Positions 9,065 to 59,014 of a stretch of DNA of 64,000 nucleotides are shown one piece after another. Location: contig CAZGEP010000002.1 in NCBI GenBank assembly GCA_964524955.1, positions 5,591-69,590 of the forward strand, in the 5' to 3' direction. Numbering within the stretch: position 1 is the first letter of the stretch; every line of letters starts with the position of its first letter. Below the pieces are notes generated by a model. That model was given only the letters and a program-made list of their open reading frames with translations. It did not search any database and was not told where the DNA came from. This stretch comes from an uncultured Planctomycetota bacterium. GTDB lineage: Bacteria; Planctomycetota; CAZGEP01. The position numbers were made by a program, and so were the translations under genes.

Positions 9065-10501
9065 TTAGAAGCTGAGCGCTGTCGTAAAGAGAACGCCAAA
9101 AGCTGTGCTGGCATCTGCAGGTTTAACTGCAGCTGCTAAAGCAGCCGGAACATTCTCGCTTTCACAACCGCTTCCGGGAGCGAAAATACCGAGGTCCAGT
9201 CCCATGGACAGGTTCTCGGAGTAGGCGTAATCAACGCCAAGGTCAACTTCAAAACCGATCATGTTATCATCGGTAGCAGCACCAACAGAGTTGACCGGAA
9301 CGTCTTCATTGGTCATATCGCCGAAAACAGCGAAAAGGATGTTACCGGAGATCTTGTCGGTGAAGCTGGCGCCACCGCCGAGGCGGATGGCGTAGTAGCC
9401 GGAGGCCAGGTCGTTGCCAGTAGCATCGATGCCCATACCCAGCTGGTCATCGCCTTCAACGAGCAGTGTTTTGTCGTTGTTTTCCATCAGAGGCTGCCAG
9501 GCGGTGATCTTGTCATCGTCATCAGACTGGCCGCTTCTCAGAGCAAAGGACAGTTCAATCCAGGGTTTGTAGTTAACGCTTGCCCAGTCATAACGAGCAG
9601 CAAGGTCAACGGCCCATGCGAAAAGGTCGGCACTTTCGTAGCCACCTTCTTCGGTGGAGTTCAGCGCACCGAACTGAACCGCAACTTCACCGGTCAGTTC
9701 CAGAGCATTGCTCAGCAGGAAGTAATCAACGCCCAGACCCACGATACCGACGTAATTGTTCCAGACATCGGATGTAAATCTACGTGCTACTGAGTCATTG
9801 ATCATGCCATCGTCGGCTGCATCGGCAATAAAATCAACAACTCCGTCGGAAGCAATAACGTTTCCGTCAGCGGAAGCATCGTCATTCAGAAAACCAAAGT
9901 AGAAGTTGACCAGATTGTCAACATCTTCGCTCAGCCAGTAATCCACATTAAAACCATAGAGGTCTGTGTCGCCGGCAGCCATCGGGTGCGCTGCGGATTC
10001 CACATACTTCATAATGAAAAGGTCAATGATCAGATTCTGGTAATTCAGGGTTCCCTTGAAACCTACGGGAACGGGATCAAAATCACCGGTAATACCGGCA
10101 TTGGCTGCATCGTAACCGAGCCACATGGACATGCCGTCGCCGCGAAGGGCATAGTGCATCTTCTGCTTACCAATGGTCATGGTGAGCGGAGCATACAGGA
10201 ATTCTTTGGCCTGTACGTATGCCTGGTTGACATTCAGAACATCTGCGAAACCGCTGTTAACCAGCATATTGTTGGCGCGAAGATCAATCACGCCGAGAAC
10301 ATTGTCGGACAGCTGAAAGGTGAAATCCATTTCAGCATCCTGCCTGAGCTGGCCAAAGTCACCCCTGGCGTCGTTGTCAAGGTCATAATCCATTGTGGTG
10401 AAGGCTTCGGTAAGAAGACTACCACTGATGCCGACCTTGGCAGCGCTCGCAGGGACGATTGCCACAAGGCAAATCACTGCTGCTAATAAAAGCTTCTTCA
10501 T
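9065..10501 (-). CDS. outer-membrane beta-barrel protein / porin-like
   Basis: Start set at MKKLLLAAVICLVAIVPASA (signal peptide, GGAGAAAAAA upstream). The body alternates amphipathic and Gly/Asp/Asn-rich segments. The C-terminal residue is Phe (..TTALSF), typical of BAM substrates. Confidence 0.65.
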   Translation of the reverse strand: MKKLLLAAVICLVAIVPASAAKVGISGSLLTEAFTTMDYDLDNDARGDFGQLRQDAEMDFTFQLSDNVLGVIDLRANNMLVNSGFADVLNVNQAYVQAKEFLYAPLTMTIGKQKMHYALRGDGMSMWLGYDAANAGITGDFDPVPVGFKGTLNYQNLIIDLFIMKYVESAAHPMAAGDTDLYGFNVDYWLSEDVDNLVNFYFGFLNDDASADGNVIASDGVVDFIADAADDGMINDSVARRFTSDVWNNYVGIVGLGVDYFLLSNALELTGEVAVQFGALNSTEEGGYESADLFAWAVDLAARYDWASVNYKPWIELSFALRSGQSDDDDKITAWQPLMENNDKTLLVEGDDQLGMGIDATGNDLASGYYAIRLGGGASFTDKISGNILFAVFGDMTNEDVPVNSVGAATDDNMIGFEVDLGVDYAYSENLSMGLDLGIFAPGSGCESENVPAALAAAVKPADASTAFGVLFTTALSF

Positions 10502-11186
10502 TATTTTTTCTCCTACAATAAAAAGTGTAAAACATTTCATGTGGCAACCCGGCTGCCTTTATTCAAAAAGGCCCGTGGCTTTGCGTATCCGCTAAACATA
10601 CGGACTTGCCTTTAGCACATTTTCCACAAAAAACATTTTACTTCAAAACATCTATATTAATTTCACTCATAAAGAGCAAAACCGGTTTTTCTCTCATTAT
10701 CTATACCATCTCCTCTCAGGTTCGACAGTCCGTCATCACCTCCTTTCCTGGACCCGAATCCGCTCCTTGGCCCTTCTCAGACCATGCCTGTCGGGCACCG
10801 GCTTAATGGGGCCGTGCCGACCAGCTTTGCCGGCTGTTTTTTTTATTATATTATCGTTTTCTACTTCACATAAAAACAATACACCGGCCAGAGCACATCT
10901 CTGTTTGTTGTCCATACCAGAGAGCAGGTATGGTTAAACACAAATCTATTTTATATCAAAGATCAGATACTTTAAGGTGAAAATATATTCTATGCTTCGT
11001 AAAAGTCAACAAAAAAGTTTAAATTTATTAAACAAAACCTGTTTTGTTTTTTATAAAATATAAAACATATTCTATACTATAATCGGCGTTTGTCAAGTAA
11101 ATCTTTAATTTTTTTTACAGGGAAAGTGTAGAACCGATGCTGTATGCATCTGGTAAAACAGGCAAAAACCCTTCATTTGAACGCTT

Positions 11187-14452: not shown

Positions 14453-15301
14453 GTGTCTGATTCATGCATTGATATTCAGAATATTGCATACAAGGAAGCC
14501 GGGCCTGATTATCACACGCGTCCGCACAGAAAAAAAGATGCCCTGCAATGGTATTGCGTGGTATATGGCAGGGTGGATATGGTTGTGGATGACATCTCCA
14601 CTATTCTCAATCCCGCAGATGCGATCCTGATCCATGCGTCATCTGTACGCTCTCCCTGCTGTCTGGACAGCCAGGCGCCTGGATATCTGATATCCGATTT
14701 CATCAACCACTCCCTTGCGCTGGACTCAATCATAAATCGCAGAATTCATGTTCCAGCGGAAATCCAGCCGGATTTGCGTTCTCTTGCCCAGGAACTTCGC
14801 GGACATCCAGAACCGGATACGCTTGAACTGACCCTGGCGCTTCTGATCCGAATCCTTATCGGGCTCTGCCGCACATCAGAAACCGATTCTTCAACCACCT
14901 TATCGCTCAATGCCGGCCATCATCACGAAATCATCCGGCGGGCCGAAGTCTTTATGCGCAGAAATCTCCACCGTCCGCTTTCCCGCAGCGATATTGCCCG
15001 AAGCGTACATTTCTCCGCCCCTCATCTGGCCCGGATTTTCCGCTCACACACCGACAAAACCGTTACCGAACGCTTAACCGAACTTCGCGTCACCCGGGCC
15101 AAGCAGCTTTTGCTGGAAACCACTATGCCCATCACACAGATATGCTTTGACGTGGGATATGATTCGTTCAGCCATTTCAGTAAAGTCTTTAAGGGCCATG
15201 TCGGAGTCCGGCCGTCCGATTACCGAAAAAGCGAAGGCATGGTATGGCGAAATGAAAGCATAAAAAACAGGGATACGTTTATTGAGGATTCATCATCTTA
15301 A
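14453..15301 (+). CDS. AraC-family transcriptional regulator
   Basis: C-terminal ITQICFDVGYDSFSHFSKVFKGHVGVRPSDYRK is an AraC HTH. Divergent from the 11.2-14.2 kb catabolic genes. Confidence 0.85.
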   Translation: MSDSCIDIQNIAYKEAGPDYHTRPHRKKDALQWYCVVYGRVDMVVDDISTILNPADAILIHASSVRSPCCLDSQAPGYLISDFINHSLALDSIINRRIHVPAEIQPDLRSLAQELRGHPEPDTLELTLALLIRILIGLCRTSETDSSTTLSLNAGHHHEIIRRAEVFMRRNLHRPLSRSDIARSVHFSAPHLARIFRSHTDKTVTERLTELRVTRAKQLLLETTMPITQICFDVGYDSFSHFSKVFKGHVGVRPSDYRKSEGMVWRNESIKNRDTFIEDSSS

Positions 15302-16032
15302 AGCTGCATCAACAGCTTGATTATTTCCAGATGAACCTCCATGGTATGTGTGACAATCAATGAATTCTGCAATAGTCCGATGTGTATTCCCTTTCGTTCC
15401 CAGCTCCCCGGTCGAACGGTTGCCTTTATCTTTTCCACAATATCATCCTTATCAAGGTCTTGCTCTTCTTCCCGACCATTAAAATCCATAATCTCAACTC
15501 CGCCGCCGTCCTTGTTTCCCACAGAAGTTAAATCCATCTTCGGGGCTGGAAAGTCTTTTATTTTAATCAGATAAGGGGAAAGGTCATGTATTCGGGTAAC
15601 TGTTCTGCCAGGATATTTTTCCCTGGTTGTGATATAAACAGCACTGTCCACCAGCTTGTACTTGACATCCGCAAGTTTGCATATCCAGTCCAGCGCCACC
15701 TTGACCTTGACATTTTTCAGTGACAGGCTTATGGGCGGCGGGTTTTGTTTGTATACATCCGGGTCCACAACAATATTGATTTTTGTAATTTCCCGCAGCA
15801 GATGAATGGCATCCTTTAAGGGAGTTTCCCGAAATACAATTCCCTTACTCGTTTTTTTTGTTTTAACTATGATGTTTTTATTATGGTCTGCAGGTACAGG
15901 CGTTTCGTTTTTTTCGTTTTTTTGTTTTACACCGGATTGATTTGGCCCCGGTTCTGTCTTTCCCGTATCTTCGCTGAATACGATAGCTACGCTCAAGCAC
16001 AAAACACACAGACAAGCTGTCCGCTTTGTCAT
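15298..16032 (-). CDS. secreted protein with a secretin-N/STN-like domain pattern, no pore domain
   Basis: Signal peptide. ETPLKDAIHLLREITKINIVVDPDV...ISLSLKNVKVKVALDWICKLADVKYKLVDSAVYITT matches the pattern of N-terminal domains of secretins and STN domains. 244 aa. Pattern-based call only. Confidence 0.45.
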   Translation of the reverse strand: MTKRTACLCVLCLSVAIVFSEDTGKTEPGPNQSGVKQKNEKNETPVPADHNKNIIVKTKKTSKGIVFRETPLKDAIHLLREITKINIVVDPDVYKQNPPPISLSLKNVKVKVALDWICKLADVKYKLVDSAVYITTREKYPGRTVTRIHDLSPYLIKIKDFPAPKMDLTSVGNKDGGGVEIMDFNGREEEQDLDKDDIVEKIKATVRPGSWERKGIHIGLLQNSLIVTHTMEVHLEIIKLLMQL

Positions 16033-16071: not shown

Positions 16072-16509
16072 TTATTTGAGAATTGAAACAAAACAACCCG
16101 GGCCGTTTCCGCCTCGGATCTCGGTGTTGTCATCGGAAGCAAGTACTTTGGCAACATGCACGGTGACTGTGACTTCATTTTCCATGCCGTCATTTACCGT
16201 AATATAATCTTTCACGCGGTTTTCGTCACCAGCGGTATATATCAGCTCAAAGCCCTGGCTCTCGGCTTCATACGTACTTTCGCCCACAACGTTCCAAAAA
16301 TACGCACCACTGGCACTTCCCTGAGCTACAAATGTAATGGTCTGGGCCGGAAAGGCAAAAACCTCCTCCACCGGTTCACTGAGGTCTGTACCGTTTCTGG
16401 TCTTGATCACCAGATTCGATGTCTGTGCCTGGGCGGAATAAAAGGTGCAGAAAAAAAACCCCACAATTACACTAACCACAAAGGCTGTAATAATGACTCT
16501 TGTTTTCAT
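16072..16509 (-). CDS. small secreted protein: signal peptide, one Ig-like module, GCF tail
   Basis: Start set at MKTRVIITAFVVSVIVGFFFCTFYSAQAQ, because the longer ORF would overlap the upstream gene. Contains GSASGAYFWNV, similar to the G-x-x-PYSW repeats of the giant protein. Ends GGNGPGCFVSILK. Confidence 0.55.
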   Translation of the reverse strand: MKTRVIITAFVVSVIVGFFFCTFYSAQAQTSNLVIKTRNGTDLSEPVEEVFAFPAQTITFVAQGSASGAYFWNVVGESTYEAESQGFELIYTAGDENRVKDYITVNDGMENEVTVTVHVAKVLASDDNTEIRGGNGPGCFVSILK

Positions 16510-16534
16510 TGACCTGCTTGCCTCGATCAAAGGT

Positions 16535-17434
16535 TTATTCAGAGCATACACGGATAAAGCAGCCTGAGCCGCTGCCCGGCAGCTGATTGCCCTGTCTGTC
16601 TGATCCCGAAATCCTGTAAATGGTGTCATCTCCGGACTGGCCGGCAAACGTGGAAATCGCAGTTGCACTGGAAAGTTCGTTCGCGTCATACGTCGTTCCC
16701 TGCGTACTGTCTTCATTTTCCAGCCCGATCAGAGGTATGGGGCCGCCCCAGCTGTTTTCATAATCGTCGTCATCGCCTGTGTCATCTGTTTCAGAATCAT
16801 CGTCTTCATTTACCAAAGCGAAATTCGGAATATTCTTATACTGCATGGTCACATCACCGCTTTCGTGGAGAATCACCTGAAACGTCAGATAATCGTCATT
16901 GTCCCAGCCCCACCACCAGTAAAAATACCGGACTGAATCCCAGGTCACCACAAACATTTTACCGCGTTCGGCATCCTCAATGGTTTCGTATACCAGTGCA
17001 CCACCGGTAATTACCAGGTCATCCCAGTATACTGCAACAGTTGCGTGCGGTGCGCCGAGATTGGGCAGATCTCCGGGCGTAATATATGATGTAACCCCCT
17101 GCACATAATCTCCCAGCGTGAGCAGACCGTTGGATCCGATATTGACCCGGCTGTACTCCCTGCCGTAAAAATTAAATGTAAAACCAATATCAACACGAAG
17201 CTGGGCCGAATCATCGCCCAGACTGGTCAGGTTTGCATTTGGATTATAGAAAACGGGCTCTTCGTGGTCCACCCAGTCATATCCAGTAGCCTGCAGGACC
17301 ATGCTGTTTTCCTGCTCCTGCTGTTCCTCCTGCTGCTCAACGTCATCCTCTTCATTTTCAAACTGGCTGAATACAGGTCCGGAAAAGAAACAAACAATGG
17401 CCAGGGAAAGAAATAGAGTGATGTACTTTTTCAT
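16535..17434 (-). CDS. secreted acidic protein with a NIDO-like FxFxFYG...NG pattern and GCF tail
   Basis: Signal peptide MKKYITLFLSLAIVCFFSGPVFSQ. IGFTFNFYGREYSRVNIGSNGLLTLG resembles the nidogen-type motif. Two poly-acidic stretches. Ends PGSGSGCFIRVCSE. Confidence 0.6.
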   Translation of the reverse strand: MKKYITLFLSLAIVCFFSGPVFSQFENEEDDVEQQEEQQEQENSMVLQATGYDWVDHEEPVFYNPNANLTSLGDDSAQLRVDIGFTFNFYGREYSRVNIGSNGLLTLGDYVQGVTSYITPGDLPNLGAPHATVAVYWDDLVITGGALVYETIEDAERGKMFVVTWDSVRYFYWWWGWDNDDYLTFQVILHESGDVTMQYKNIPNFALVNEDDDSETDDTGDDDDYENSWGGPIPLIGLENEDSTQGTTYDANELSSATAISTFAGQSGDDTIYRISGSDRQGNQLPGSGSGCFIRVCSE

Positions 17435-17487
17435 AGTCGTATCCTCCTCAAACAGAAATTATACGGATTTCAGAAAAAAAATCAAAT

Positions 17488-17533
17488 AAAAACACAAAAA
17501 CACCTGTTGCCTTCGTGAGCAGAAGGCAACAGG
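17488..17533 (-). terminator. Rho-independent terminator downstream of the giant gene
   Basis: On the minus strand, CCTGTTGCCTTC-tgctcac-GAAGGCAACAGG (12-bp stem) followed by TGTTTTTGTGTTTTT, about 30 nt after the stop at 17564. Confidence 0.7.
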
Positions 17534-17563
17534 TATGGGTTCTGATTTTTGATCCGTCCGTGA

Positions 17564-20500
17564 TTATTTCCGAAGCGCACCGATAAAGCAGCCGCCTCCA
17601 GTGCTGCTGCCGCCAGTCTTGGTGCTGGTTCCGGAAGCACCGCTCAGTACACGGATGGTAATCTGCTTGGTCTCCAGGGTAACATTGTCCATAACCTCAA
17701 CCACATCGATCTGCCGGTCTTCGCTGCCCGATGAGTAGGTTACGGAGGAACCGCCGGATGCGTCAATGGAGCATCCCGAGGCATTGGTCACAATGGTCCA
17801 GCTGTAGGATCCGCTGCCGCCCATGGCATAGAGCAGGATAGTCGCGGACAGCCCCACGGTCACTTCTTCCGGATAGACCCGGAATTCACCGCCAATGGTT
17901 CCTGAACCGCCGGTCTGGACAATCACACTCAATGAGAAGGTGTTGTCTGCAGAATCCGTAATCGTGATGGTATCCCCTCCTTCGGTGGCACCTGCGATAT
18001 ACGTGACCTGATTTCCAGTGGTTCCGGAAAGACTGGCACCGGACGCATTCGTACTCACGCTCCAGGAGTAAGGTGCAGTGCCGCCGCTGGCGCCCAGAAT
18101 CAGCGATCCGCCCGGATCCACACTGGTCATGGCCGGAGTGCTGGTAAAGGTCTCGGACATATTCGAGGATGTATCGACCGCAGTCAGGGTGATCACGGAT
18201 TCTTCATCTCCGGTTCCGCCTTCACCGCCTTCACCGTCTTCCTCGCCGGCACCACCCGGATCGGATGTACCGCCGGACTTGACCGGTATTTCAACAACGA
18301 TTTCCACACCAATGTTGTCGTAAACCGTGAGCAGGATCTTGGTTCCGTCCTCACCCACGGTTTCAGAATCCGGAGTGGTGTACGTGAAGCTGTCACCGGT
18401 TGCATCTGTTTCATCCAGGTCGCCGATGTACCATGTGTACGGTGAAATACCACTGTCCGCGCTGAAGACCAGTTCCGTGGAAGGTGCTACCGGCGGAGTG
18501 ATCAGGTACTTATTAGTAGCGGTCTCTTCCATGGTCAGGGCTTCTCCGGATACGGATACAGTAAACAGGGAATTTATAAATGTGGTGTTGTATATTTCTC
18601 CGTATTTATACACTGTATTTCCGTGCTTGAATACCACATCATCCTCCTTGACACCCACTGTAAAGACGTCCTTGTTTTCCGTGTAATTACTGGTGGTGAT
18701 GGTCACGAAGAAATCATCGCCCATGTCCGGGTCTGCGGTTGTACCGGAGGTATTGTCGTCCACGGAAAGCGGGATAATCGGAATCGAGTACGCTTTTCCG
18801 GCTGTACCGTCGGCCGTCTCCCAGACCTCGCCGTCTCCGTTTGCGTCAATGCCGCTGTAAATTTTGGCATCCACACCGTTATCATAGGTACCGGTAGTCC
18901 CGGCTGCAGCATCCGACCAGATTTCTTCATTGATATCCCAGCGTCCATTGCTGTTGCTGTCGTAATAGTAGGTAATCGACGGATTGGGCAGACTCATGGT
19001 AACCTTGCCGAACGACCATACCGGGGTCTGCATGAACATCACCGGTGTATCATAGGGCTGTTCATCCGGATCAAAGACACCGTCGCCATCAGCATCATCC
19101 CATGTGGTTTCGCCGATATCAAACTGTCCGTCACCGTCTGCATCATTCCAGTCGAATTTACCGTTATCATAGGCGCCGCCGTTGTCCGCGTCTTTCCAGA
19201 GAGCGACTCCGCTGATCGTTGAATCCGCTTTCAGCTCTTGGAAGTCCGCGGATGTGACATTACCGGCACCCGCGTCCATAATCCGAACGGAAAGGGTGTC
19301 CAGATAAACAGACGTGCCATCGTCTTCTTTGGCGCCCAGGTTCATGCCGAACGCAGCAAATGTCGTGTTCTTGCTGATGGAGTTTCCGCCCAGATAGTCG
19401 GTAAAGAATATGGGCACATTTCCGTCCAGTTCGCGGGTCACAAATTCAGACAGCCCGGTAATACCGCTGGACATGTACACGCCTTCATTCGGGATCGTGA
19501 ACCGGATCTTGTCCGTAAAACGCATGTTTGCGCTGGTCTTGATGCACACAAACATATCCGACCCTTCATTGTCCTGCTTGTCATCAATGGGAACCAGCAC
19601 ACCATTGGGAAAGAAGACGTCTGTAAGGTAATACTCATGGTACACCTTACCCGGCGTTCCACCGGCCGTGTCCCAATCATCTCCATCACCGTTGACATCG
19701 GTTCCAGCATTGATCTGAATGTCAATGTCGGCATCGTATATACCATTGGTACCGGCCACCGAGGAATCCAGCCAGACTTCCTCCCCCGTATCCCAGCGGC
19801 CGTTGGCATTGGCATCATAATAGTATTTCTTGCCGTATTTGCGGACAAAGTCCTGGCCGTACCGCTGGATATCATCAGCAGCATTTTCGACCAGATCCCA
19901 GTCAGTAAATATGTAATTCAGACGGTCGTCTGCTGTATCCCAACGGCCGTCTTCATTGCCGTTGTCAAAGTAGAAGAGCAGCCCCGAATCCGTGGAAGCG
20001 CCAGTCAGATCGGCGAGAAAGGCCGTCATATCCAGCGGATCATTATTGGCATCCACATCATCCAGTACCCCGTCGTCATTCGCATCCGGTTCGACCTTGA
20101 TTCCCTGAACCATCAGCCGTATCTTTTCGACCTGCAAGTCCTGGGACGTAACATTCGCGTGCCGCATGTTAAAGGCGATCAGATCATACCGGGAACTGTT
20201 TACATCAATCCGGTCACCGGACGGAACCAGGTCTGCGATTTCTATCAGAACTTCCACACCCAGGATTTCACCGTCTTCGACCATGACATTGCCGCTGTAC
20301 GCTGTCAGTCCTGTGGTCATAAAAGCAAACTTATCGCCTTTCTCAAAGGGAGCGCTCGAATCCGTATTCCGGATAAGAAATACCATTTCGTTGTCATCAC
20401 TCGCGTACATCTTTCCGGTTGTTGCGCGTCCGCTCTGCAGGCCGGAAAGCGTACCCCGAACCTCCCATTCCTGGGTGGTTTCATCCACCATCTTTACAAT

Positions 20501-23500
20501 CCAGGTCTCAAGCTTGGAGCCTTCGCCGTATTTGCTCAGATAATCCACATGGGTCACATACAGACTGCCCACGCCTGCGGCACCATCCATAAGCCGCGGC
20601 TTGGTGTGCGACCGCAGATCCAGAGATACATGTTCATCAAATACGGTTACCGGCAGTCCCTGTGTACCGTTGGCTGTGGTCCATCCGTCCGTACCGATAT
20701 CGATCTGAATATCGCCGTCTGCACTGTTGTACACGCCGAACGGATCCTGGTCCATCCAGATATCCTCGGTTGCATCCCGTGTTTCATTTCCGTTTGCATC
20801 GTTAAAAAACCGGTTTGTGATCGAACCGCCGCCTGGCTGATCCGGACTCTTCTGCGGAACCAGACGGGCATAGAAATAGTTGTTGCCTTCATTGAGGGAG
20901 TTCTCATTCACATATTGATCCATTTCCACGTCCTTGGGTTTTTTGCGCACACCCGTACTGTACGCATAATAACTGTCAAAGCCGATGGTACCGTCTGCTG
21001 TACCCCACACCCGATCATCACTGTCATTGTTCGGAATGCCAGTATACAACTGGTTTTCACCGGTGTTATACCGGCCGTCTCCATTCTCATCCAACCAGAT
21101 ATCCTCATCCGCAGTCCAAACCCGGTCCACGGTTGAATCATTGAAAAGAATGGGAACGCCGCCCACTTCATACCGTTCATCCGTGCTGTCCCAGGTAGCA
21201 CCAAGGGGAGCGCTGATGGTCTGCAGGCATGTACCGTCATACCCCAGGTCATTGGTGTCCATGTAAAAGAACATGCGGACTGAACCGAACACATCATAGG
21301 CATTGTACTTGACCTTGTAGACGCCGTTTACTGTACTGCCACCCGGCGGATGAATAAAGCTCAGGGTCGGAATGGTCTTGGGATCCATGAAAAAGGTTAC
21401 AATGGCCGGTGCCAGCGGGTCTGCGGGCAGATCAATGTCAAGAATCTCAATGCCGCTGGGTGTCTGGTCCCACCACCGGTTCATGGGATCGGTATTGGGC
21501 CCGAACTGGTGCTTGGATGCACCGCCGTCATTTATATAATCAGATCCACCGGGAAAGATATCACCGTCATCCCCAAGATTATACCCGGCTTCAAGCTGTT
21601 CCAGGGCATCGGCCTGCACAATATTCCATGTAAAGTGATTGCCCTTACGCTGCTGCTGCGGAACCCCTTCAGCGTTTGCATCCGCATCCGTATGCAGGAT
21701 CATGATGCCCTGCTTGGGATCATCCGGTGAGCCGCGCGTGGGATCCAGCACCTGAAATCCCAGACCGGACCGATACCAGAAGTAATAATCCTCATTCGGA
21801 TAGTTCTGATTCTTAAAATGATAGTACTGGTTTTTGATGTATTCCACTGGATCCATGTGAACCTCCTGGGGCACGCCTGGAATCAGGATCGTGGCCAGGT
21901 CATTGGATTCCGTCCAGTTCTGACTCATCTTGAGAAACGGCATAGAATGAACCAGCACCGCAGCTGACATCAGGTCAAAAAGACCAATGGGCCAGTTGAT
22001 TATCACACCGTTCCACACATCATAGTCATACAAATCCGGCCAGCCGAACCAGTAATGGCCGAACTCATGGGCTGTGATTGACCGTGAATAGTCCTGATAC
22101 CAGTCGTCGTCACTTACGACCGCTTCTTCGGAACCTTCCGCGCCTGCGCCGTGTCCACAGACCCAGTCTGAATAACCGAACACATTATCACTATCCACGG
22201 TAAACACAGAGTACGTAGCCGGTGCTATTGGCGCGAAGTCACTGTCGGCATCAATAAGGGCCGTGGTATTGATGTGGCTGCCGTCACCCAGGGCTGCAAA
22301 CCGGTCGTAATCCAGTGCATCGTCATTGGCTTCAAAGCAGTCCTCCATCAGCCGCGTCCGATGCATGGGATAGATGGTCTGGACGCCATCGTCAACAGTC
22401 AAGGGATCCAAATCCACTGAATAGTTCATGCATCCTCGAATCGGACACTCACCCAGATCGATAAACCCGTCCAGATTGATGTCCCGGTACTGGCTCTGAA
22501 ATCCCAGCGGTGAACCTACATCCGCTGTGGCATTCAGAAGGCTTGCTCCGTCTGTTCGCCAGGTCTGAATTTCCAGGTTGGTCATGTTTGCTGAATCATG
22601 ACCGGTCTCTCCGTACAGGTTATACGCCAGCGGACCGCCGGAATAGACAATATCATCGGTAAACGGGCTTCCCGGATTATTATCCTCGGTATGATCCGCT
22701 CCATGAAGAACCGTGGAAAAGGGATCGGTCTCTTCGCCCAGCCAGCCGTCGCCATGCCCGGTAAAGTGACCAGGCTGAGTTGTATGATAAAGTGCGGATG
22801 CCAGATCATAGTACTCGGGAGGGCCGGACCAGCGACCTGCATTAATAATCGGTGCATCCGCATAATCCGCATAATCCGCTTCATTGGATCCCTTGGTATG
22901 ACCTCTACTGGGGCTGAAACCCCGGATCTCTGCTTCTCCGTCTGCAACCGTAGCCATGATCGGAACTTGATTCCACCATGACCCCCCAGACGGCCATAAA
23001 GGCGCTGAAGAGGTATAATCGACAGAGCTGAACTGCCGAGTCCACCAGTCTGTCCAGTCACCGTCACTGTATTTGGTGCGATCCCATATTTCTATATCGG
23101 AAAAAAAATCCGGATGCAAACCACTTACCGCACCGGGCCATAAAACGCCGGGAAAAGGATCCCATCCGGTAATGCGAACTTTTGTCTGACCACTGAATCC
23201 TGCCCTTTCTGACGGATCATACTGGCCGTTTCCAGAGCGCTGCATCAGGGCTCCCACATCGCCCGGATAATTGTTCCGGATATACGCGGCATCTGTCCGG
23301 ACATATCCGGGGGCCATTAACGGTACAGGACCCAGCGGACCGAACCAAATATCATCAACGATAAACGGATCCCACCTGGCCATGTAATCTTCCCAGGGAT
23401 CTTCAAAATCATATTCCACATCCCCGTCCGAATCTGTCCATATTTCCGGACTCTCATAGGCATATGCAATCCTGCGCTCTGTTGCCACGGGATCGCCGTT

Positions 23501-26500
23501 GTCGTCAAAAGCACTGAAGTACTCCCAGGAAACCTCTGCCTGGGAACGGCCTCCCCCGACCTTGACCACCTCAAGAGGTTCGATAATAGGCAGCCCCGCA
23601 TTGTCCAGGGCCGGATCAAAGGTCTTGTTCAGGCCCACGCTGGCTTCGTTGTAGTATCCTTCATCATCATCTTCATCAATATCCCACCACACATCCTCAC
23701 CCGTGGTGTAGTCCAGGGATCCGTCCTCGTCATAGTAATACAACTGATCGTCACCACCTTGATCTGCGGAAATGTAGTACATGACCGGATCCTTGCCGTT
23801 GACCGGCGTTCCATAGAGCACGGTGTCAATACCATTGGCATCATAAATACCCGCGTTCTGTCCGCTGTCGTCTTTCCAGATTTCTTCGGCAACATCGGGA
23901 TAATCATTTCCGTTCAAATCATTATAAAAGAGATCACCGGAGATACCGGCTGAATACATTTCCGGGGGTTGTCCCACCCGCATGATATCGTTTACGACCA
24001 CATTGCCGTCAGCATCTATAGAACCGTATTGGCCGTCACCGTCCACATCCACCCAGATTCCGCTGTCCCACAATTCGTCCCACACGCCGTTATTATTGGC
24101 ATCATAGAAGAGCAATTTGGTCTGAATTCCTGCTGCTCCGTTCCCTGTATTCCATTCCAGCGGATCCTCAAAATCCGGATCTCCGAGAAACACCTGGGTA
24201 TCGGGTCCATTGTATTCACCGTCACTATTTTCATCAATGAATATAGCGTCTCCAACGTTGAAAACCCCGTCCAGGTTTTCGTCGTAAAAGTACAGGCCGG
24301 TCTGAATACCGGCAGTACCGTCAGCTGTAATCCATTCATCATCTCCGGCAATGCGTCTGTCTTGATACTGAACCTGGTACCGGTCTCCTTCATAAGCAAA
24401 GCCTTCGCCATCGTACAGTTTGTAATCCTTGTTCGAATCAAAGACAGCGTTGTCTACTTCATACCAGACATCATCGGTATCCGCGTCATAGGTTCCATTC
24501 AGCCGTCCTCCGTCAACAGCTGTATCATCATAAAACACGTTCCAGGCATGTCCGTCACCACTGTATTCCGTGTCTCCGTCTCCATCATTCCAGACCTCTT
24601 CACCCAGGTCATACACCCCGTTGCTGTTGTCGTCATTGAACCGAAAGAGCGGTCCTGCGGTCCCATCGGTACCGTTTGAAGGCGCTGATCCCTTGAGTAC
24701 TGCATCGCCGACCAGGTCAAAATCACCATTACCGTTTGCATCATAAAAGACCGTCTCTGCTGTATCCCAGTATCCGTCTGAATCCAAATCCACAAAAAGC
24801 AGGTCTCCATCCTGGACCCCTACGGTTTCCAAGGGGGTTTCCCAAATACCGTTGCCTCCAGAATAGATTTGTGTATCCACGGAAATTACATACGCCCAGG
24901 CACTGTCTGTGGCTGCATCAAATCCGGCACCACCGTCATCGTCAATCCAGAGATTCGTATTCTTTATCTTGATTCCACTGTCCCCGTCCTCCAGGTTCGT
25001 GGCCAGAATCGGCACGTCATCCGCGTCTCCACCGCCACCGTCATTATTGTACTGACCAAAGGTTCCTTCAACCTCCTGCCAGATTCCTTCACCTTCGTCC
25101 CAGTACCCGTTGTCATTTGAATCTTCAAAGTAGTAGATGTCAGCTTGAGAACCGGCATCGCCCGCATTCAAGCCGCTTCCCTCACGAATAACATAGTCTG
25201 TAGCCTGATACGTTCCCGTTCCTTTCAGAGAGCCGGCAACCATGATATCCTCGTCATAGGTAAAAGACGAGTCTCCGCTGACTTCAAACCACACGGTCTC
25301 TCCGCTGTTGTACTGGCCGTTTCCATTGGCATCCAGATACATGAAACCGTTGTTCAGGCCCACATCTCCGTGCCGGAGACTGCCCATATTGACCAGCATC
25401 TGCATGCTTTCATCCGAGTCATAGATCCCGTCCACGTCCAGCCAGATATCCTCGTAATATTCAGTATAGCCATCCGCATTGTCGTCGTTAGGACCAATGA
25501 TCCCGCCACCTTCATAGTCTGTATCCCCGTCACCGCCGTCTTCAACGTCCGCAGCTCCCATGGCAAAATACATGCCGTTATTTATACCGGAAAAGAGGTT
25601 GGGAAAGTTCTTGATCCGCCATCCATTGCCACCGTCAAAAAGCAGGATGTCTGTTGCATCATATATACCGGCAAGGCCTGTTTCATCTCCAGTTGTTGCA
25701 TCATAATCATCGGCGTCCGGATGACAATAATCCAGCCAGATATCTTCACCTGCAGTATAGATACTGTTGCCGTCTTCGTCATAAAAGTATATCTTGTTGT
25801 TGCTTCCAGTGGTTCCGTTGGTTGTTGTCCAGTCCAGCGGAAAGTCGGAAAGATCAATAATGTAATTCTTGTATCTGGGAATGTAAAGTTCATTGAGAAA
25901 GATCAAACGGTTGACTCCATTGTTCTTGTCTGCGACCGTGATCGTAACAATCCCGGAGTACTGACCGTCCTCATTGTAATCCACGAATGCCTCGCCATGG
26001 GTATCCCACTCCCCCTTACGGGCCGGATACTGCGGATTGGAGTTACTCAAAAAGGTTTCTTCTCCACCCTTTCCCATGTCATAATGCCTGCCGTTTCCAT
26101 CTACATAAGCGTAGCAGTCATACCACGGTTCCGGACCGTTCCACGAACCGTTTCCATTCAGATCCTTGTACCGCTCACCGGGTGTAAAGGCATTGTCAGC
26201 GATCTGGGTATCGGCAAATCCAGCGGAGGCCCCATACTCGAATAATAAGGAGTCGTTCAGGTCAATAAAACCGGTTTCCCGGGCAATGGGCCAGGGCATG
26301 GCAATCCATGCCGGCACTTCAGCATTAACGATTTTTTCCACGCCATAGGAATTTTCCACCAGCCATTCATGCCATGACCCGCCGTATATATCCGGAACCA
26401 CACCTTCGGAAAACCACATGTCTTCAATGGCCTTACGGTTGGGCAGCTCCGTGGCCGTGGTGCTGCCGCCGCTCTTGGGAACGGTTGCCAGAAAAAGGAT

Positions 26501-26590
26501 AAAATTCCTGTCTGCGGCAAAAAGAGAAGATGCCAGGGTTGTTAAAAACAAGACTAATAACACTGAAAGGGTCAGCCGTTTCATTTCCAT
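17564..26590 (-). CDS. giant (3008 aa) secreted multidomain protein: split M6/InhA-like metalloprotease, many EF-hand-type Ca loops, C-terminal Ig-like repeats, GCF tail
   Basis: Uninterrupted 9-kb ORF with signal peptide MEMKRLTLSVLLVLFLTTLASSLFA. HEFGHYWFGWPDLYD at aa 1508. Repeated D-x-N-x-N-G-x-[WY]-D-x-x-E loops. Three G-x-x-PY[ST]W modules. All opposite-strand ORFs are low-complexity shadows. Confidence 0.9.
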   Translation of the reverse strand: MEMKRLTLSVLLVLFLTTLASSLFAADRNFILFLATVPKSGGSTTATELPNRKAIEDMWFSEGVVPDIYGGSWHEWLVENSYGVEKIVNAEVPAWIAMPWPIARETGFIDLNDSLLFEYGASAGFADTQIADNAFTPGERYKDLNGNGSWNGPEPWYDCYAYVDGNGRHYDMGKGGEETFLSNSNPQYPARKGEWDTHGEAFVDYNEDGQYSGIVTITVADKNNGVNRLIFLNELYIPRYKNYIIDLSDFPLDWTTTNGTTGSNNKIYFYDEDGNSIYTAGEDIWLDYCHPDADDYDATTGDETGLAGIYDATDILLFDGGNGWRIKNFPNLFSGINNGMYFAMGAADVEDGGDGDTDYEGGGIIGPNDDNADGYTEYYEDIWLDVDGIYDSDESMQMLVNMGSLRHGDVGLNNGFMYLDANGNGQYNSGETVWFEVSGDSSFTYDEDIMVAGSLKGTGTYQATDYVIREGSGLNAGDAGSQADIYYFEDSNDNGYWDEGEGIWQEVEGTFGQYNNDGGGGDADDVPILATNLEDGDSGIKIKNTNLWIDDDGGAGFDAATDSAWAYVISVDTQIYSGGNGIWETPLETVGVQDGDLLFVDLDSDGYWDTAETVFYDANGNGDFDLVGDAVLKGSAPSNGTDGTAGPLFRFNDDNSNGVYDLGEEVWNDGDGDTEYSGDGHAWNVFYDDTAVDGGRLNGTYDADTDDVWYEVDNAVFDSNKDYKLYDGEGFAYEGDRYQVQYQDRRIAGDDEWITADGTAGIQTGLYFYDENLDGVFNVGDAIFIDENSDGEYNGPDTQVFLGDPDFEDPLEWNTGNGAAGIQTKLLFYDANNNGVWDELWDSGIWVDVDGDGQYGSIDADGNVVVNDIMRVGQPPEMYSAGISGDLFYNDLNGNDYPDVAEEIWKDDSGQNAGIYDANGIDTVLYGTPVNGKDPVMYYISADQGGDDQLYYYDEDGSLDYTTGEDVWWDIDEDDDEGYYNEASVGLNKTFDPALDNAGLPIIEPLEVVKVGGGRSQAEVSWEYFSAFDDNGDPVATERRIAYAYESPEIWTDSDGDVEYDFEDPWEDYMARWDPFIVDDIWFGPLGPVPLMAPGYVRTDAAYIRNNYPGDVGALMQRSGNGQYDPSERAGFSGQTKVRITGWDPFPGVLWPGAVSGLHPDFFSDIEIWDRTKYSDGDWTDWWTRQFSSVDYTSSAPLWPSGGSWWNQVPIMATVADGEAEIRGFSPSRGHTKGSNEADYADYADAPIINAGRWSGPPEYYDLASALYHTTQPGHFTGHGDGWLGEETDPFSTVLHGADHTEDNNPGSPFTDDIVYSGGPLAYNLYGETGHDSANMTNLEIQTWRTDGASLLNATADVGSPLGFQSQYRDINLDGFIDLGECPIRGCMNYSVDLDPLTVDDGVQTIYPMHRTRLMEDCFEANDDALDYDRFAALGDGSHINTTALIDADSDFAPIAPATYSVFTVDSDNVFGYSDWVCGHGAGAEGSEEAVVSDDDWYQDYSRSITAHEFGHYWFGWPDLYDYDVWNGVIINWPIGLFDLMSAAVLVHSMPFLKMSQNWTESNDLATILIPGVPQEVHMDPVEYIKNQYYHFKNQNYPNEDYYFWYRSGLGFQVLDPTRGSPDDPKQGIMILHTDADANAEGVPQQQRKGNHFTWNIVQADALEQLEAGYNLGDDGDIFPGGSDYINDGGASKHQFGPNTDPMNRWWDQTPSGIEILDIDLPADPLAPAIVTFFMDPKTIPTLSFIHPPGGSTVNGVYKVKYNAYDVFGSVRMFFYMDTNDLGYDGTCLQTISAPLGATWDSTDERYEVGGVPILFNDSTVDRVWTADEDIWLDENGDGRYNTGENQLYTGIPNNDSDDRVWGTADGTIGFDSYYAYSTGVRKKPKDVEMDQYVNENSLNEGNNYFYARLVPQKSPDQPGGGSITNRFFNDANGNETRDATEDIWMDQDPFGVYNSADGDIQIDIGTDGWTTANGTQGLPVTVFDEHVSLDLRSHTKPRLMDGAAGVGSLYVTHVDYLSKYGEGSKLETWIVKMVDETTQEWEVRGTLSGLQSGRATTGKMYASDDNEMVFLIRNTDSSAPFEKGDKFAFMTTGLTAYSGNVMVEDGEILGVEVLIEIADLVPSGDRIDVNSSRYDLIAFNMRHANVTSQDLQVEKIRLMVQGIKVEPDANDDGVLDDVDANNDPLDMTAFLADLTGASTDSGLLFYFDNGNEDGRWDTADDRLNYIFTDWDLVENAADDIQRYGQDFVRKYGKKYYYDANANGRWDTGEEVWLDSSVAGTNGIYDADIDIQINAGTDVNGDGDDWDTAGGTPGKVYHEYYLTDVFFPNGVLVPIDDKQDNEGSDMFVCIKTSANMRFTDKIRFTIPNEGVYMSSGITGLSEFVTRELDGNVPIFFTDYLGGNSISKNTTFAAFGMNLGAKEDDGTSVYLDTLSVRIMDAGAGNVTSADFQELKADSTISGVALWKDADNGGAYDNGKFDWNDADGDGQFDIGETTWDDADGDGVFDPDEQPYDTPVMFMQTPVWSFGKVTMSLPNPSITYYYDSNSNGRWDINEEIWSDAAAGTTGTYDNGVDAKIYSGIDANGDGEVWETADGTAGKAYSIPIIPLSVDDNTSGTTADPDMGDDFFVTITTSNYTENKDVFTVGVKEDDVVFKHGNTVYKYGEIYNTTFINSLFTVSVSGEALTMEETATNKYLITPPVAPSTELVFSADSGISPYTWYIGDLDETDATGDSFTYTTPDSETVGEDGTKILLTVYDNIGVEIVVEIPVKSGGTSDPGGAGEEDGEGGEGGTGDEESVITLTAVDTSSNMSETFTSTPAMTSVDPGGSLILGASGGTAPYSWSVSTNASGASLSGTTGNQVTYIAGATEGGDTITITDSADNTFSLSVIVQTGGSGTIGGEFRVYPEEVTVGLSATILLYAMGGSGSYSWTIVTNASGCSIDASGGSSVTYSSGSEDRQIDVVEVMDNVTLETKQITIRVLSGASGTSTKTGGSSTGGGCFIGALRK
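22055..22069 (-). other. zinc-binding HEFGH motif of the M6-like protease domain
   Basis: The reverse complement reads CAT GAG TTC GGC CAT, within ITAHEFGHYWFGWPDLYDYD. Compare the InhA-type HEFGH-x4-PDEY. Confidence 0.8.
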
Positions 26591-57506: not shown

Positions 57507-58370
57507 ATGAACAAGAAAAAAAACAGTATTGATGATATTATCCGTGAAGACAAAGGCGAAATCTCGCATCAGATTGTCAACGCTGCTGCCGATGATCTGG
57601 ACAGCGGTTCCAAAAAGGCAACATCCAAAGAGCTGGAAAAACAGAAATCCGAACGCAAAGAAACCTTTTATTCTGATCTGATCTATACGATTACGCATCA
57701 GAGAAAGCCGGAAAACGAAGCCCGTCTGATCTGGGGAGATCTGCTTCAGCACAAAAAGGAACTCTCGGAAAAGCTTAAACGCAATGTGGGAATTCGTGTC
57801 GCAGCCCTGGATTACTTTCAGAATATTACCAAGGATCTGGGGGATGTGAAAATTATCGAAGACAGCGAGTATATTCAGACCGAGCGCCTGGCTGTAACCG
57901 ATGGGCTGACCAATTTATTCAACCACCGTTTTTTCCATGACACGGTTGAAAAGTTAGTCCGGAAGAAAAAACAGTTTACTGTTTTTCTCTTTGATATCGA
58001 TGATTTTAAAAAATACAATGACAAATACGGACACATTGCCGGAGATATTGCATTGCGCGAATTCGGACTTATTATCAACAACACCATTCGTAAACTCGAT
58101 CTTGGATTTCGCTACGGAGGCGAGGAATTTGCTGTGATTTTCTCCAACACTGGAAAAGACAATGCTCCGGTATGTGCTGAACGGATTCGTACTCAGATTA
58201 ACAGTAAGATTTTTCCAAATGATGTTCATCTGAGTATCAGCGGAGGCATTGCCTTTTTCCCGGAAGAGGCCAGCTCCCGTAAACACGTTATTAAACACGT
58301 TATTGACTTAGCTGACAAACGTCTATACAAAGCCAAGGACGCGGGTAAAAACCGAATCATTTTTAAATGA
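57507..58370 (+). CDS. diguanylate cyclase (GGDEF domain)
   Basis: DGLTNLFNHRFF, RYGGEEFAVIF (GGEEF active site) and ADKRLYKAKDAGKNR motifs. 287 aa. Confidence 0.85.
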   Translation: MNKKKNSIDDIIREDKGEISHQIVNAAADDLDSGSKKATSKELEKQKSERKETFYSDLIYTITHQRKPENEARLIWGDLLQHKKELSEKLKRNVGIRVAALDYFQNITKDLGDVKIIEDSEYIQTERLAVTDGLTNLFNHRFFHDTVEKLVRKKKQFTVFLFDIDDFKKYNDKYGHIAGDIALREFGLIINNTIRKLDLGFRYGGEEFAVIFSNTGKDNAPVCAERIRTQINSKIFPNDVHLSISGGIAFFPEEASSRKHVIKHVIDLADKRLYKAKDAGKNRIIFK

Positions 58371-59014
58371 CTGAAACTATTCTTATATTCGCCCTCTTTA
58401 TTTTTTCCATCATTCTTCACGAATGCGCCCATGGATTTGCCGCCTGGAAACTGGGAGACAATACTGCTAAAAATGCGGGCCGCATCTCTCTTAATCCCCT
58501 GCATCACATTGATCCATTCTTTACGATCATACTCCCGATTATCCTTCTCCTTTATTCCGGGTTTGTCTTCGGCGGTCCCAAACCTGTTCCGGTAGACAAG
58601 CGGAATTTCCGCAGGCCAGACCGGGACATGGCACTTGTGGCTTTCATTGGCCCTCTAACCAATTTTTTTCTGGCTATTGTCTTCTTCGTCCTTCTGCTTC
58701 CGTTTTATCCTACGGAACCGTTTCATCCATCTATGACGCAGGGAAGTCTCCAACAAATTCTGTCTGCTGTTTTCTATAACCTTTGTTTTATCAATATTTT
58801 ACTGGGTTGTTTTAATCTCATCCCCATCCCTCCGCTGGATGGCTCAAGAATCCTTCTCTTTCTTCTTCCTGTTTCGTTAAAAAAATCCCTGATTCACTTG
58901 GAAAAAACAGGTCTCTTTCTACTGATAATCCTGTTGATATTCATCCCTCTACAGGATATAATAGAACCTATTCGTAGTATAATTGATTATTTCGCTCATT
59001 TCTTTTTACATTGA
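58367..59014 (+). CDS. M50-family (site-2 protease-like) membrane metalloprotease
   Basis: HECAHGFAAWKLGD (HExxH within a TM helix), NLIPIPPLDGSRIL (the NxxPxxxLDG motif), and multiple TM segments. Confidence 0.8.
   Translation: MTETILIFALFIFSIILHECAHGFAAWKLGDNTAKNAGRISLNPLHHIDPFFTIILPIILLLYSGFVFGGPKPVPVDKRNFRRPDRDMALVAFIGPLTNFFLAIVFFVLLLPFYPTEPFHPSMTQGSLQQILSAVFYNLCFINILLGCFNLIPIPPLDGSRILLFLLPVSLKKSLIHLEKTGLFLLIILLIFIPLQDIIEPIRSIIDYFAHFFLH

Follow-up and report, generated by a model that had tools for sequence, protein, structure and literature searches.

Three exported proteins and their tails

Three consecutive genes on the minus strand of a 64,000-nucleotide stretch of contig CAZGEP010000002.1 from an uncultured bacterium (the window, by which we mean the whole stretch that was analyzed) encode proteins that end in the same short tail, G-x-G-C-F-[IV] followed by only four or five residues. 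A sequence-only reading had singled out these tails as a candidate new C-terminal sorting or processing tag, and translation confirmed that all three proteins carry them. The largest gene (17564..26590, minus strand) encodes an exported protein of 3008 amino acids, built from a signal peptide, many acidic Asp/Gly-rich repeats, the HExxH-containing stretch HEFGHYWFGWPDLYDY, four C-terminal beta-rich modules, a spacer, and the tail. In minus-strand translation, this giant protein ends in GGSSTGGGCFIGALRK (TKTGGSSTGGGCFIGALRK) before the stop codon, with the Gly/Ser/Thr-rich spacer SGASGTSTKTGGSST and the tail GGGCFIGALRK together encoded at 17567..17644 (minus strand). Its acidic repeats number in the dozens, and its zinc-protease-like HExxH motif, HEFGHYWFGWPDLYDY, is reminiscent of M6/InhA peptidases. 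No Pfam or NCBIfam domain was found in the giant protein, even when it was searched as 600-amino acid pieces, and it had no sequence match in the PDB.

The second gene (16535..17434, minus strand) encodes an exported protein of 299 amino acids in which a weak NIDO-like domain and an acidic linker precede the C-terminal sequence QLPGSGSGCFIRVCSE (NQLPGSGSGCFIRVCSE), of which the tail GSGCFIRVCSE occupies 16538..16570 (minus strand). NIDO (nidogen-like) domains are known mostly from animal extracellular proteins; the match to PF06119 scored 19.2 bits, under the cutoff, and the few homologues of this protein also match NIDO weakly. An exact-sequence look-up of this protein returned no match. The third gene (16072..16509, minus strand) encodes a signal peptide, one module, and the tail GPGCFVSILK (16075..16104, minus strand), ending in IRGGNGPGCFVSILK (EIRGGNGPGCFVSILK); the Val of this variant is Ile in both orthologues. 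The size of 146 first given for this protein is correct as a count of codons that includes the stop, but the protein itself has 145 amino acids. A longer, 214-amino acid start at 16716 was rejected, as both orthologues favor the ATG at 16509. The sequence-only reading took its single module to be Ig-like, a putative assignment that structure did not confirm: an AlphaFold2 model of the 145-amino acid protein, built from a 2-row alignment, had a mean predicted local distance difference test score of 44, too low for use.

Signal peptides were assigned by inspection and hydrophobicity rather than by a predictor. By eye, all three proteins begin with a Sec-like signal peptide, as had been proposed: MEMKRLTLSVLLVLFLTTLASSLFA before AD in the giant protein, MKKYITLFLSLAIVCFFSGPVFS before QF in the 299-amino acid protein, and MKTRVIITAFVVSVIVGFFFCTFYSAQA before QT in the 145-amino acid protein. 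Counted from the C-terminus, the tail Cys is the 8th residue in the first two and the 7th in the third, in agreement with the earlier placement, and the four or five residues that follow CF[IV] are indeed too few for a membrane helix. The tail Cys is the sole Cys of the mature 145-amino acid protein. The 299-amino acid protein has a second Cys within its tail (C-F-I-x-x-C), which is kept in its orthologues.

Among the 566 stop-to-stop open reading frames (ORFs) of at least 50 amino acids in the six frames of the window, GCF[IVL] occurs exactly three times, each time in one of these tails. Given the amino acid composition of the window, the expected number of G-x-G-C-F-[IV] motifs with the Cys 5–14 residues from the end is about 5e-6 per protein, and the probability that three adjacent genes carry the tail by chance is negligible. 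The 145-amino acid protein is a paralogue of the last module and tail of the giant protein (29% identity over 101 amino acids, E 1e-4). The 299-amino acid protein has nothing in common with the giant protein except the tail. Consequently, since the 145-amino acid protein and the last giant module are paralogous, the three tails count as only two independent cargo families.

Database sampling of this lineage is sparse, with 8, 2, and 7 matches for the three protein queries. Two syntenic loci were recovered, one from a Logan assembly (L001, approximately 85% identity) and one from an ENA contig (L002, approximately 50% identity). The giant protein has a 55% identical orthologue (P0012), the 145-amino acid protein one that is 81–85% identical (P0010), and the 299-amino acid protein has orthologues in L001 and in L002 (P0002). 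Absence of the tail from orthologues had been named as a result that would count against a tag, and the tail is not lost: G-x-G-C-F-[IV] is kept in all nine tails of the window, L001, and L002. The giant tails read GGGCFIGALRK in the window, GGGCFIGVLRK in L001, and GGGCFIRALTE in L002; those of the 299-amino acid protein read GSGCFIRVCSE in both the window and L001 and GFGCFISTCLDKDGIE in L002; and those of the 145-amino acid protein read GPGCFVSILK, GPGCFISILK, and GPGCFISLLR, respectively. The L002 tail of the 299-amino acid family is longer, with 10 residues after CF[IV] and 12 after the Cys, which is thus 13th from the end. Tail codons vary synonymously (TGC or TGT, ATC or ATT, and all four Gly codons), so the conserved entity is the peptide and not a DNA element, and a repeated DNA element as the origin of the tails is ruled out by the codon differences between them. 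The tail is under selection at the amino acid level.

The CFI box in curated models, other genomes, and homologues

The tag is not new, contrary to the original proposal. NCBI curators had reached it first, as a putative sorting motif. Their NCBIfam model NF041763.1 (“CFI-box putative sorting motif-containing protein”; sort_motif_CFI) has a cutoff that the giant tail of the window, scanned alone, narrowly exceeds, and there is a sister model, NF041770.1 (CFI-box-CTERM). NF041763 is a 14-position hidden Markov model with a curated cutoff of 15.9 bits. The giant tails alone scored 16.0 bits (window) and 19.1 and 18.8 bits (orthologues), and the 299-amino acid tails alone fell below the cutoff, at 13.4–14.4 bits for the window and L001 and 7.1 bits for L002. 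The anatomy fits, in that a Gly-rich run and Cys-Phe-Ile (Val in the 145-amino acid protein of the window) stand about 10 residues or fewer from the C-terminus of proteins with signal peptides, an arrangement that recurs in at least 20 genome and about 50 metagenome examples. The longer domain of NF041770, 69 residues after the CFI box, is not in the window tails; that model matched only a synthetic probe of the longer motif (GGGGCFIATAAYGS with a downstream LRNFRDRYLL), at 121.5 bits. Pfam has no model for the tail. What the window adds is new members, partly sub-threshold, from an apparently different lineage, including a minimal cargo with one module and a single Cys.

Our scans of genome and metagenome collections are samples, not censuses, and classes were assigned by simple rules. 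Species-representative genomes were scanned for DNA encoding GGGGCFI, and the matches, at least 119 loci, were analyzed in frame. At least 40 were long CFI-box-CTERM genes, and at least 26 were short tails, in which CFI, 4–17 residues, and a stop follow a long ORF; about 21 of these were convincing. At least four (L016, L050, L085, L115) placed a spacer, a hydrophobic helix, and a basic cluster after CFI, and L114 and L090 look similar. At least five were unrelated cytosolic GHMP-kinase-like proteins (KMCGAGGGGCFI), at least one was a Hint-like domain, and the remainder of the matches listed were short random-frame ORFs. In the Hint-like case (L081), CFITGTKVSLPNGEKK comes after a poly-Gly run and appears to open a Hint/intein-like domain; the resemblance to the CFI box is no more than superficial. 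Many of the short-form proteins listed have clear signal peptides and unrelated bodies and come mainly from Desulfobacterota. Among the matches listed, dozens of unrelated signal-peptide proteins end in poly-Gly-CFI-x-[TAS]-[LC]-x-x, recurrence of the kind expected of a sorting or processing tag.

An independent scan of metagenomes for GGGCFIxTL yielded at least 120 loci. Among the matches listed, 72 of the 76 with at least 100 upstream codons stop no more than 21 codons from the first Gly. About 26 of these 76 (L127, L129, L131, and others) belong to a histidine-kinase-like family that ends in RLENGGxLGGGCFILTLP. This family is cytosolic and unrelated; it mimics the CFI box and would contaminate a census made by regular expression. 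With the histidine-kinase family removed, 46 of the 50 remaining matches listed are C-terminal. The consensus after CFI in the short tails listed is x-[T/A/S]-[L/C]-x-x, mostly five residues, with which the window endings GALRK, RVCSE, and SILK agree. Of 25 CFI tails of the short or helix type taken from other genomes, 23 matched NF041763. Two metagenome-assembled genomes (MAGs) each hold a short CFI tail together with the form that has a helix and basic cluster (L090 and L124 in MFD09779.bin.1.292; L096 and L120 in SMAG_U14249), which, because both architectures occur in one genome, suggests that one machinery may serve both. A rough count gave zero or an even number of other Cys residues for at least 29 of 53 short-form proteins, and the tail Cys thus appears usually to be unpaired. 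An intramolecular disulfide was rejected as a role for the tail Cys, which is often the only or the odd Cys.

Homologues of the cargo provided a further line of evidence. A profile of the last module and tail, searched against 1.84 billion representative proteins, found 454 relatives, and 93 of the best 148 of these 454 end in a Cys, a hydrophobic helix, and an Arg cluster. Among the tails of the top 50 relatives, 22 match TIGR03901 (MYXO-CTERM) and six match TIGR03382 (E<=0.01). The homologous module aligns as TASGGSG..Y.W.L.TNASGG.ID..G.YTAG....DVV.V.D..GN.A...V.V, after which the relatives continue with a few residues and GC.C, helix, and RRRR, and the window proteins with a Gly/Ser/Thr spacer, GCFI, and four or five residues. 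Neither TIGR03901 nor TIGR03382 matched the window tails, which have no helix and no Arg cluster. Where the window proteins carry the CFI tail, homologues of the module usually carry MYXO-CTERM, a tail swap. Distant giant homologues vary in the same region: P0014 ends in a tripartite Cys signal with weak MYXO-CTERM matches, and P0013 (L004 826-11061; 3411 amino acids) ends in a short Cys tail with no helix, GGGGGGGCLLKP. P0006, a NIDO/FN3 protein of a Deltaproteobacteria MAG, likewise has a short Cys tail with no helix, DDDDDDDGGCCGC. The P0013 and P0006 tails could be members of a broader class of short Cys tags at the C-terminus.

Genomic surroundings

A strong terminator-like hairpin with a 15-base pair stem and a T run (17500..17536, minus strand) lies directly 3' of the giant gene, and a promoter-like TTGATT-16-TATAAT (17458..17485, minus strand) lies upstream of the 299-amino acid gene. 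Gaps of 25 and 39 base pairs separate the 299-, 145-, and 244-amino acid genes, the last of which (15298..16032, minus strand) is co-oriented and downstream and encodes an exported protein that has a secretin-N0/STN-like stretch but lacks a CFI tail. These three genes probably form their own transcription unit. The 244-amino acid gene is kept in L001; in L002 it does not adjoin the others, and it is therefore at most a loosely linked partner.

The wider window looks like ordinary chromosome, with parAB, accBC, efp, guaA, riboflavin synthesis, aspS, hisS, dnaN, gyrB, sulfatases, and squalene-hopene cyclase. One window protein matches the Amuc_1098-family model, and sulfatase and ThuA/GFO genes are also present; one distant giant homologue is labelled Kiritimatiellaeota. 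These are three weak hints that the organism belongs to the PVC group or Kiritimatiellota. The only intramembrane protease seen in the window, a small M50-family metalloprotease (58367-59014, plus strand), is 42 kilobases away from the tails and shows no connection with them. Directly upstream of an ORF (9065-10540, minus strand) for a 491-amino acid Alginate_exp-like outer-membrane protein is a c-di-GMP-I riboswitch aptamer (RF01051, 54.2 bits; 10540-10620, minus strand).

Interpretation and comparison with known systems

Haft set out eight criteria for C-terminal sorting signals (10.1101/2023.06.07.544157), and the tails agree with six of them. They have a C-terminal location, occur several times per genome (three in 64 kilobases), and contain at least three near-invariant residues (G, C, F, I/V), which are the first three criteria. 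They also agree with the sixth to eighth, in that the carriers have signal peptides and are unrelated outside the tag, and homologues have MYXO-CTERM or no tag. They depart from the fourth and fifth, having no transmembrane segment and no basic cluster (some end in K or RK, others in SE or TE). We consider it probable, on balance, that the tails are short-form CFI boxes, a Cys-centered surface sorting or anchoring tag that works with no membrane helix. The extreme C-terminal position on unrelated signal-peptide proteins, the Gly/Ser/Thr-rich spacer, the conservation among orthologues, and the replacement by MYXO-CTERM in homologues all point to this sorting-tag explanation.

How such a tag might act can be sketched by analogy with myxosortase. 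After Sec export, the unpaired Cys would be covalently modified, most plausibly with a lipid; a dedicated enzyme, with its gene in another part of the genome, would clip the few residues beyond it; and the cargo would stay tethered to the cell envelope or surface through its stalk. The pathway would be a helix-less analogue of MYXO-CTERM/myxosortase and of eukaryotic CaaX/Rce1. Myxosortase, of the CPBP/Rce1 family, cleaves MYXO-CTERM in a manner dependent on the conserved Cys, and lipidation of that Cys has been proposed (PMC11980579). The sequence-only reading had likened the tail to a CaaX-style box. It is not a true CaaX box, as the Cys lies 7–13 residues from the end and not four, and the proteins are exported. 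A more specific and distinctly tentative possibility, again by analogy, is that the short CFI box is a bacterial, extracytoplasmic counterpart of CaaX, in which the Cys of poly-Gly-C-F-I-x-T-L-x-x would be lipidated in the periplasm and the last six or seven residues clipped by a CPBP/Rce1- or rhomboid-type enzyme, with no helix in the substrate. If this were true, it would be the first helix-less C-terminal lipid-anchoring signal in bacteria, and one machinery would act on all three CFI forms: the short one, the helix-bearing one, and the 69-amino acid CFI-box-CTERM.

Several observations weigh against the sorting-tag explanation. With no helix or basic cluster after the motif, it is hard to see how a membrane enzyme would hold the substrate, and Cys lipidation is unproven even in MYXO-CTERM (PMC11980579). 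Two of the three window tails have a common ancestry. The 145-amino acid tails of the window and both orthologues, taken alone, gave no match to NF041763 at E<=10, and the three proteins, when scanned at full length with Pfam and NCBIfam, showed no sorting domain, NF041763 included; because those full-length scans report nothing, routine annotation would probably miss these tails. In the literature that we searched for the CFI box, no description, enzyme, or experiment was found. Pfam searches of about 50 window ORFs found no sortase, exosortase, or rhomboid gene, as the sequence-only reading had also seen (it listed rhombosortase-like genes), and no CPBP gene. All-against-all clustering of the ORFs around the 119 and 120 listed loci revealed no recurrent neighbor of the approximately 80 short-form genes, and a regular expression for CPBP motifs found no matching ORF beside a true CFI gene among these loci.

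The strongest competing explanation, which we nevertheless regard as unlikely, is that the unpaired Cys forms an intermolecular disulfide or another cross-link to a partner protein or an envelope polymer, and that the tail is never cleaved or lipidated. The single Cys of the mature 145-amino acid protein fits this, as do the commonly unpaired Cys of other short-form proteins, the subset with a second Cys (C-F-I-x-x-C), and the co-location of the three window proteins, which could link to one another. However, a reactive Cys by itself would not require an invariant Phe-Ile or a conserved [TAS]-[LC], nor does it account for the fixed distance to the stop codon, for the same box standing before membrane helices or a 69-amino acid domain elsewhere, or for the positional swap with MYXO-CTERM.

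In a less probable alternative still, a translocon of the outer membrane, a type II secretion-like system, or a chaperone would recognize the tail non-covalently, for example as a terminal strand or peptide, and the proteins would cross the outer membrane with no modification. MYXO-CTERM and GlyGly-CTERM cargo do depend on type II secretion (PMC11980579). Among the matches listed, GspE/GspF-like pairs (type II secretion or type IV pilus) lie within 4 kilobases of five of the 40 long-form CFI genes (L019, L020, L039, L049, L055) and of L114, or six of about 45 long-form or helix-type loci, whereas one of about 49 controls has such a pair; this hints weakly at ties to type II secretion-like systems. 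No such adjacency was seen for short-form genes among these matches. A gene for a secretin-N0-like protein follows just downstream of the tail genes in the window and L001, but it is not kept beside them in L002, and an invariant Cys would be unusual for a purely non-covalent signal.

Gly-Cys-Phe is also the hedgehog autocleavage tripeptide, and a hedgehog- or intein-type reaction, in which an N-to-S acyl shift at G-C-F frees the tail and activates the C-terminal Gly for transfer, would be in keeping with the Hint-like domain of L081 (from a Candidatus Gracilibacteria MAG), which starts GGGGCFITGTKV. We judge this very improbable. The Hint fold needs approximately 130–150 residues after the Cys, whereas here there are six or seven, or 12 in L002, and this tail length effectively refutes Hint/hedgehog autoprocessing; the 69 positions of the long CFI-box-CTERM look helical by eye (LRxFRD) and unlike Hint. 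Coincidence or local duplication, with tails that mean nothing beyond this operon, could draw on the paralogy of the 145-amino acid protein with the last giant module and is refuted by the otherwise unrelated 299-amino acid protein, the chance expectation per protein of ~5e-6, the retention of the tail in orthologues, its presence on dozens of unrelated proteins in other phyla among the matches listed, and the curated model.

To our knowledge, the known C-terminal sorting signals (LPXTG, PEP-CTERM, GlyGly-CTERM, MYXO-CTERM, and PGF-CTERM) all use a helix to keep their substrate in the membrane until it is acted on by a membrane enzyme. No helix is present in the short CFI box, yet the box behaves as a sorting tag and trades places with MYXO-CTERM, and this makes its recognition and processing a mechanistic question. 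A small set of proteins suited to tests is available in the window: the single-Cys minimal cargo of 145 amino acids, the unrelated cargo of 299 amino acids, and the 3008-amino acid protein. The window also extends the motif to a lineage apparently outside Desulfobacterota, and some of its variants escape the curated model. A practical point for annotators is that whole-protein scans with NF041763 under-call tails of this kind.

Set beside the curated families, the window tails share with NF041763 a C-terminal Gly-rich run, Cys-Phe-Ile, and few residues after it, and short tails of Desulfobacterota and other genomes score in the same range. They differ in that the 299-amino acid tails lie just below its cutoff and the 145-amino acid tails (G-P-G-C-F-[VI]) do not match. 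While most scan matches are from Desulfobacterota, the organism of the window is apparently from outside that phylum. NF041770 (69 positions) has the same poly-Gly-Cys-Phe-Ile box at the C-terminus of exported proteins, but it continues with ATAA[YF]GS, LRxFRD, YY..SPP, and then a hydrophobic segment, whereas the window tails stop four or five residues after CF[IV].

Among processed signals, GlyGly-CTERM with its rhombosortase resembles the window family in having a Gly-rich C-terminal signature on secreted proteins that end surface-attached, and a logic of cleavage and lipid attachment has been proposed there too (PMC11980579). It lacks an invariant Cys and depends on a membrane helix and basic cluster, and the window has no rhomboid gene. 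The systems of eukaryotic CaaX/Rce1, and archaeal MmRce1, likewise have, close to the C-terminus, a Cys with two hydrophobic residues after it. The Cys of CaaX proteins is lipidated, and the end is then clipped by a CPBP-family protease (PMC11980579). That Cys occupies precisely the fourth position from the end, and both the substrate and the prenyltransferase are in the cytosol, while in the window family the Cys is 7th to 13th and the proteins are Sec-exported. The likeness to MYXO-CTERM and its myxosortase MrtX (TIGR03901; PMC11980579) takes in an invariant Cys, a Gly-rich C-terminal signature, exported surface proteins, giant repeat cargo of adhesin- or protease-like character, and the same position after the same homologous module. 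In MYXO-CTERM, the motif is GC.C, and a transmembrane helix and an Arg cluster follow the Cys; the window tails have GCFI with neither, in a window with no CPBP protease.

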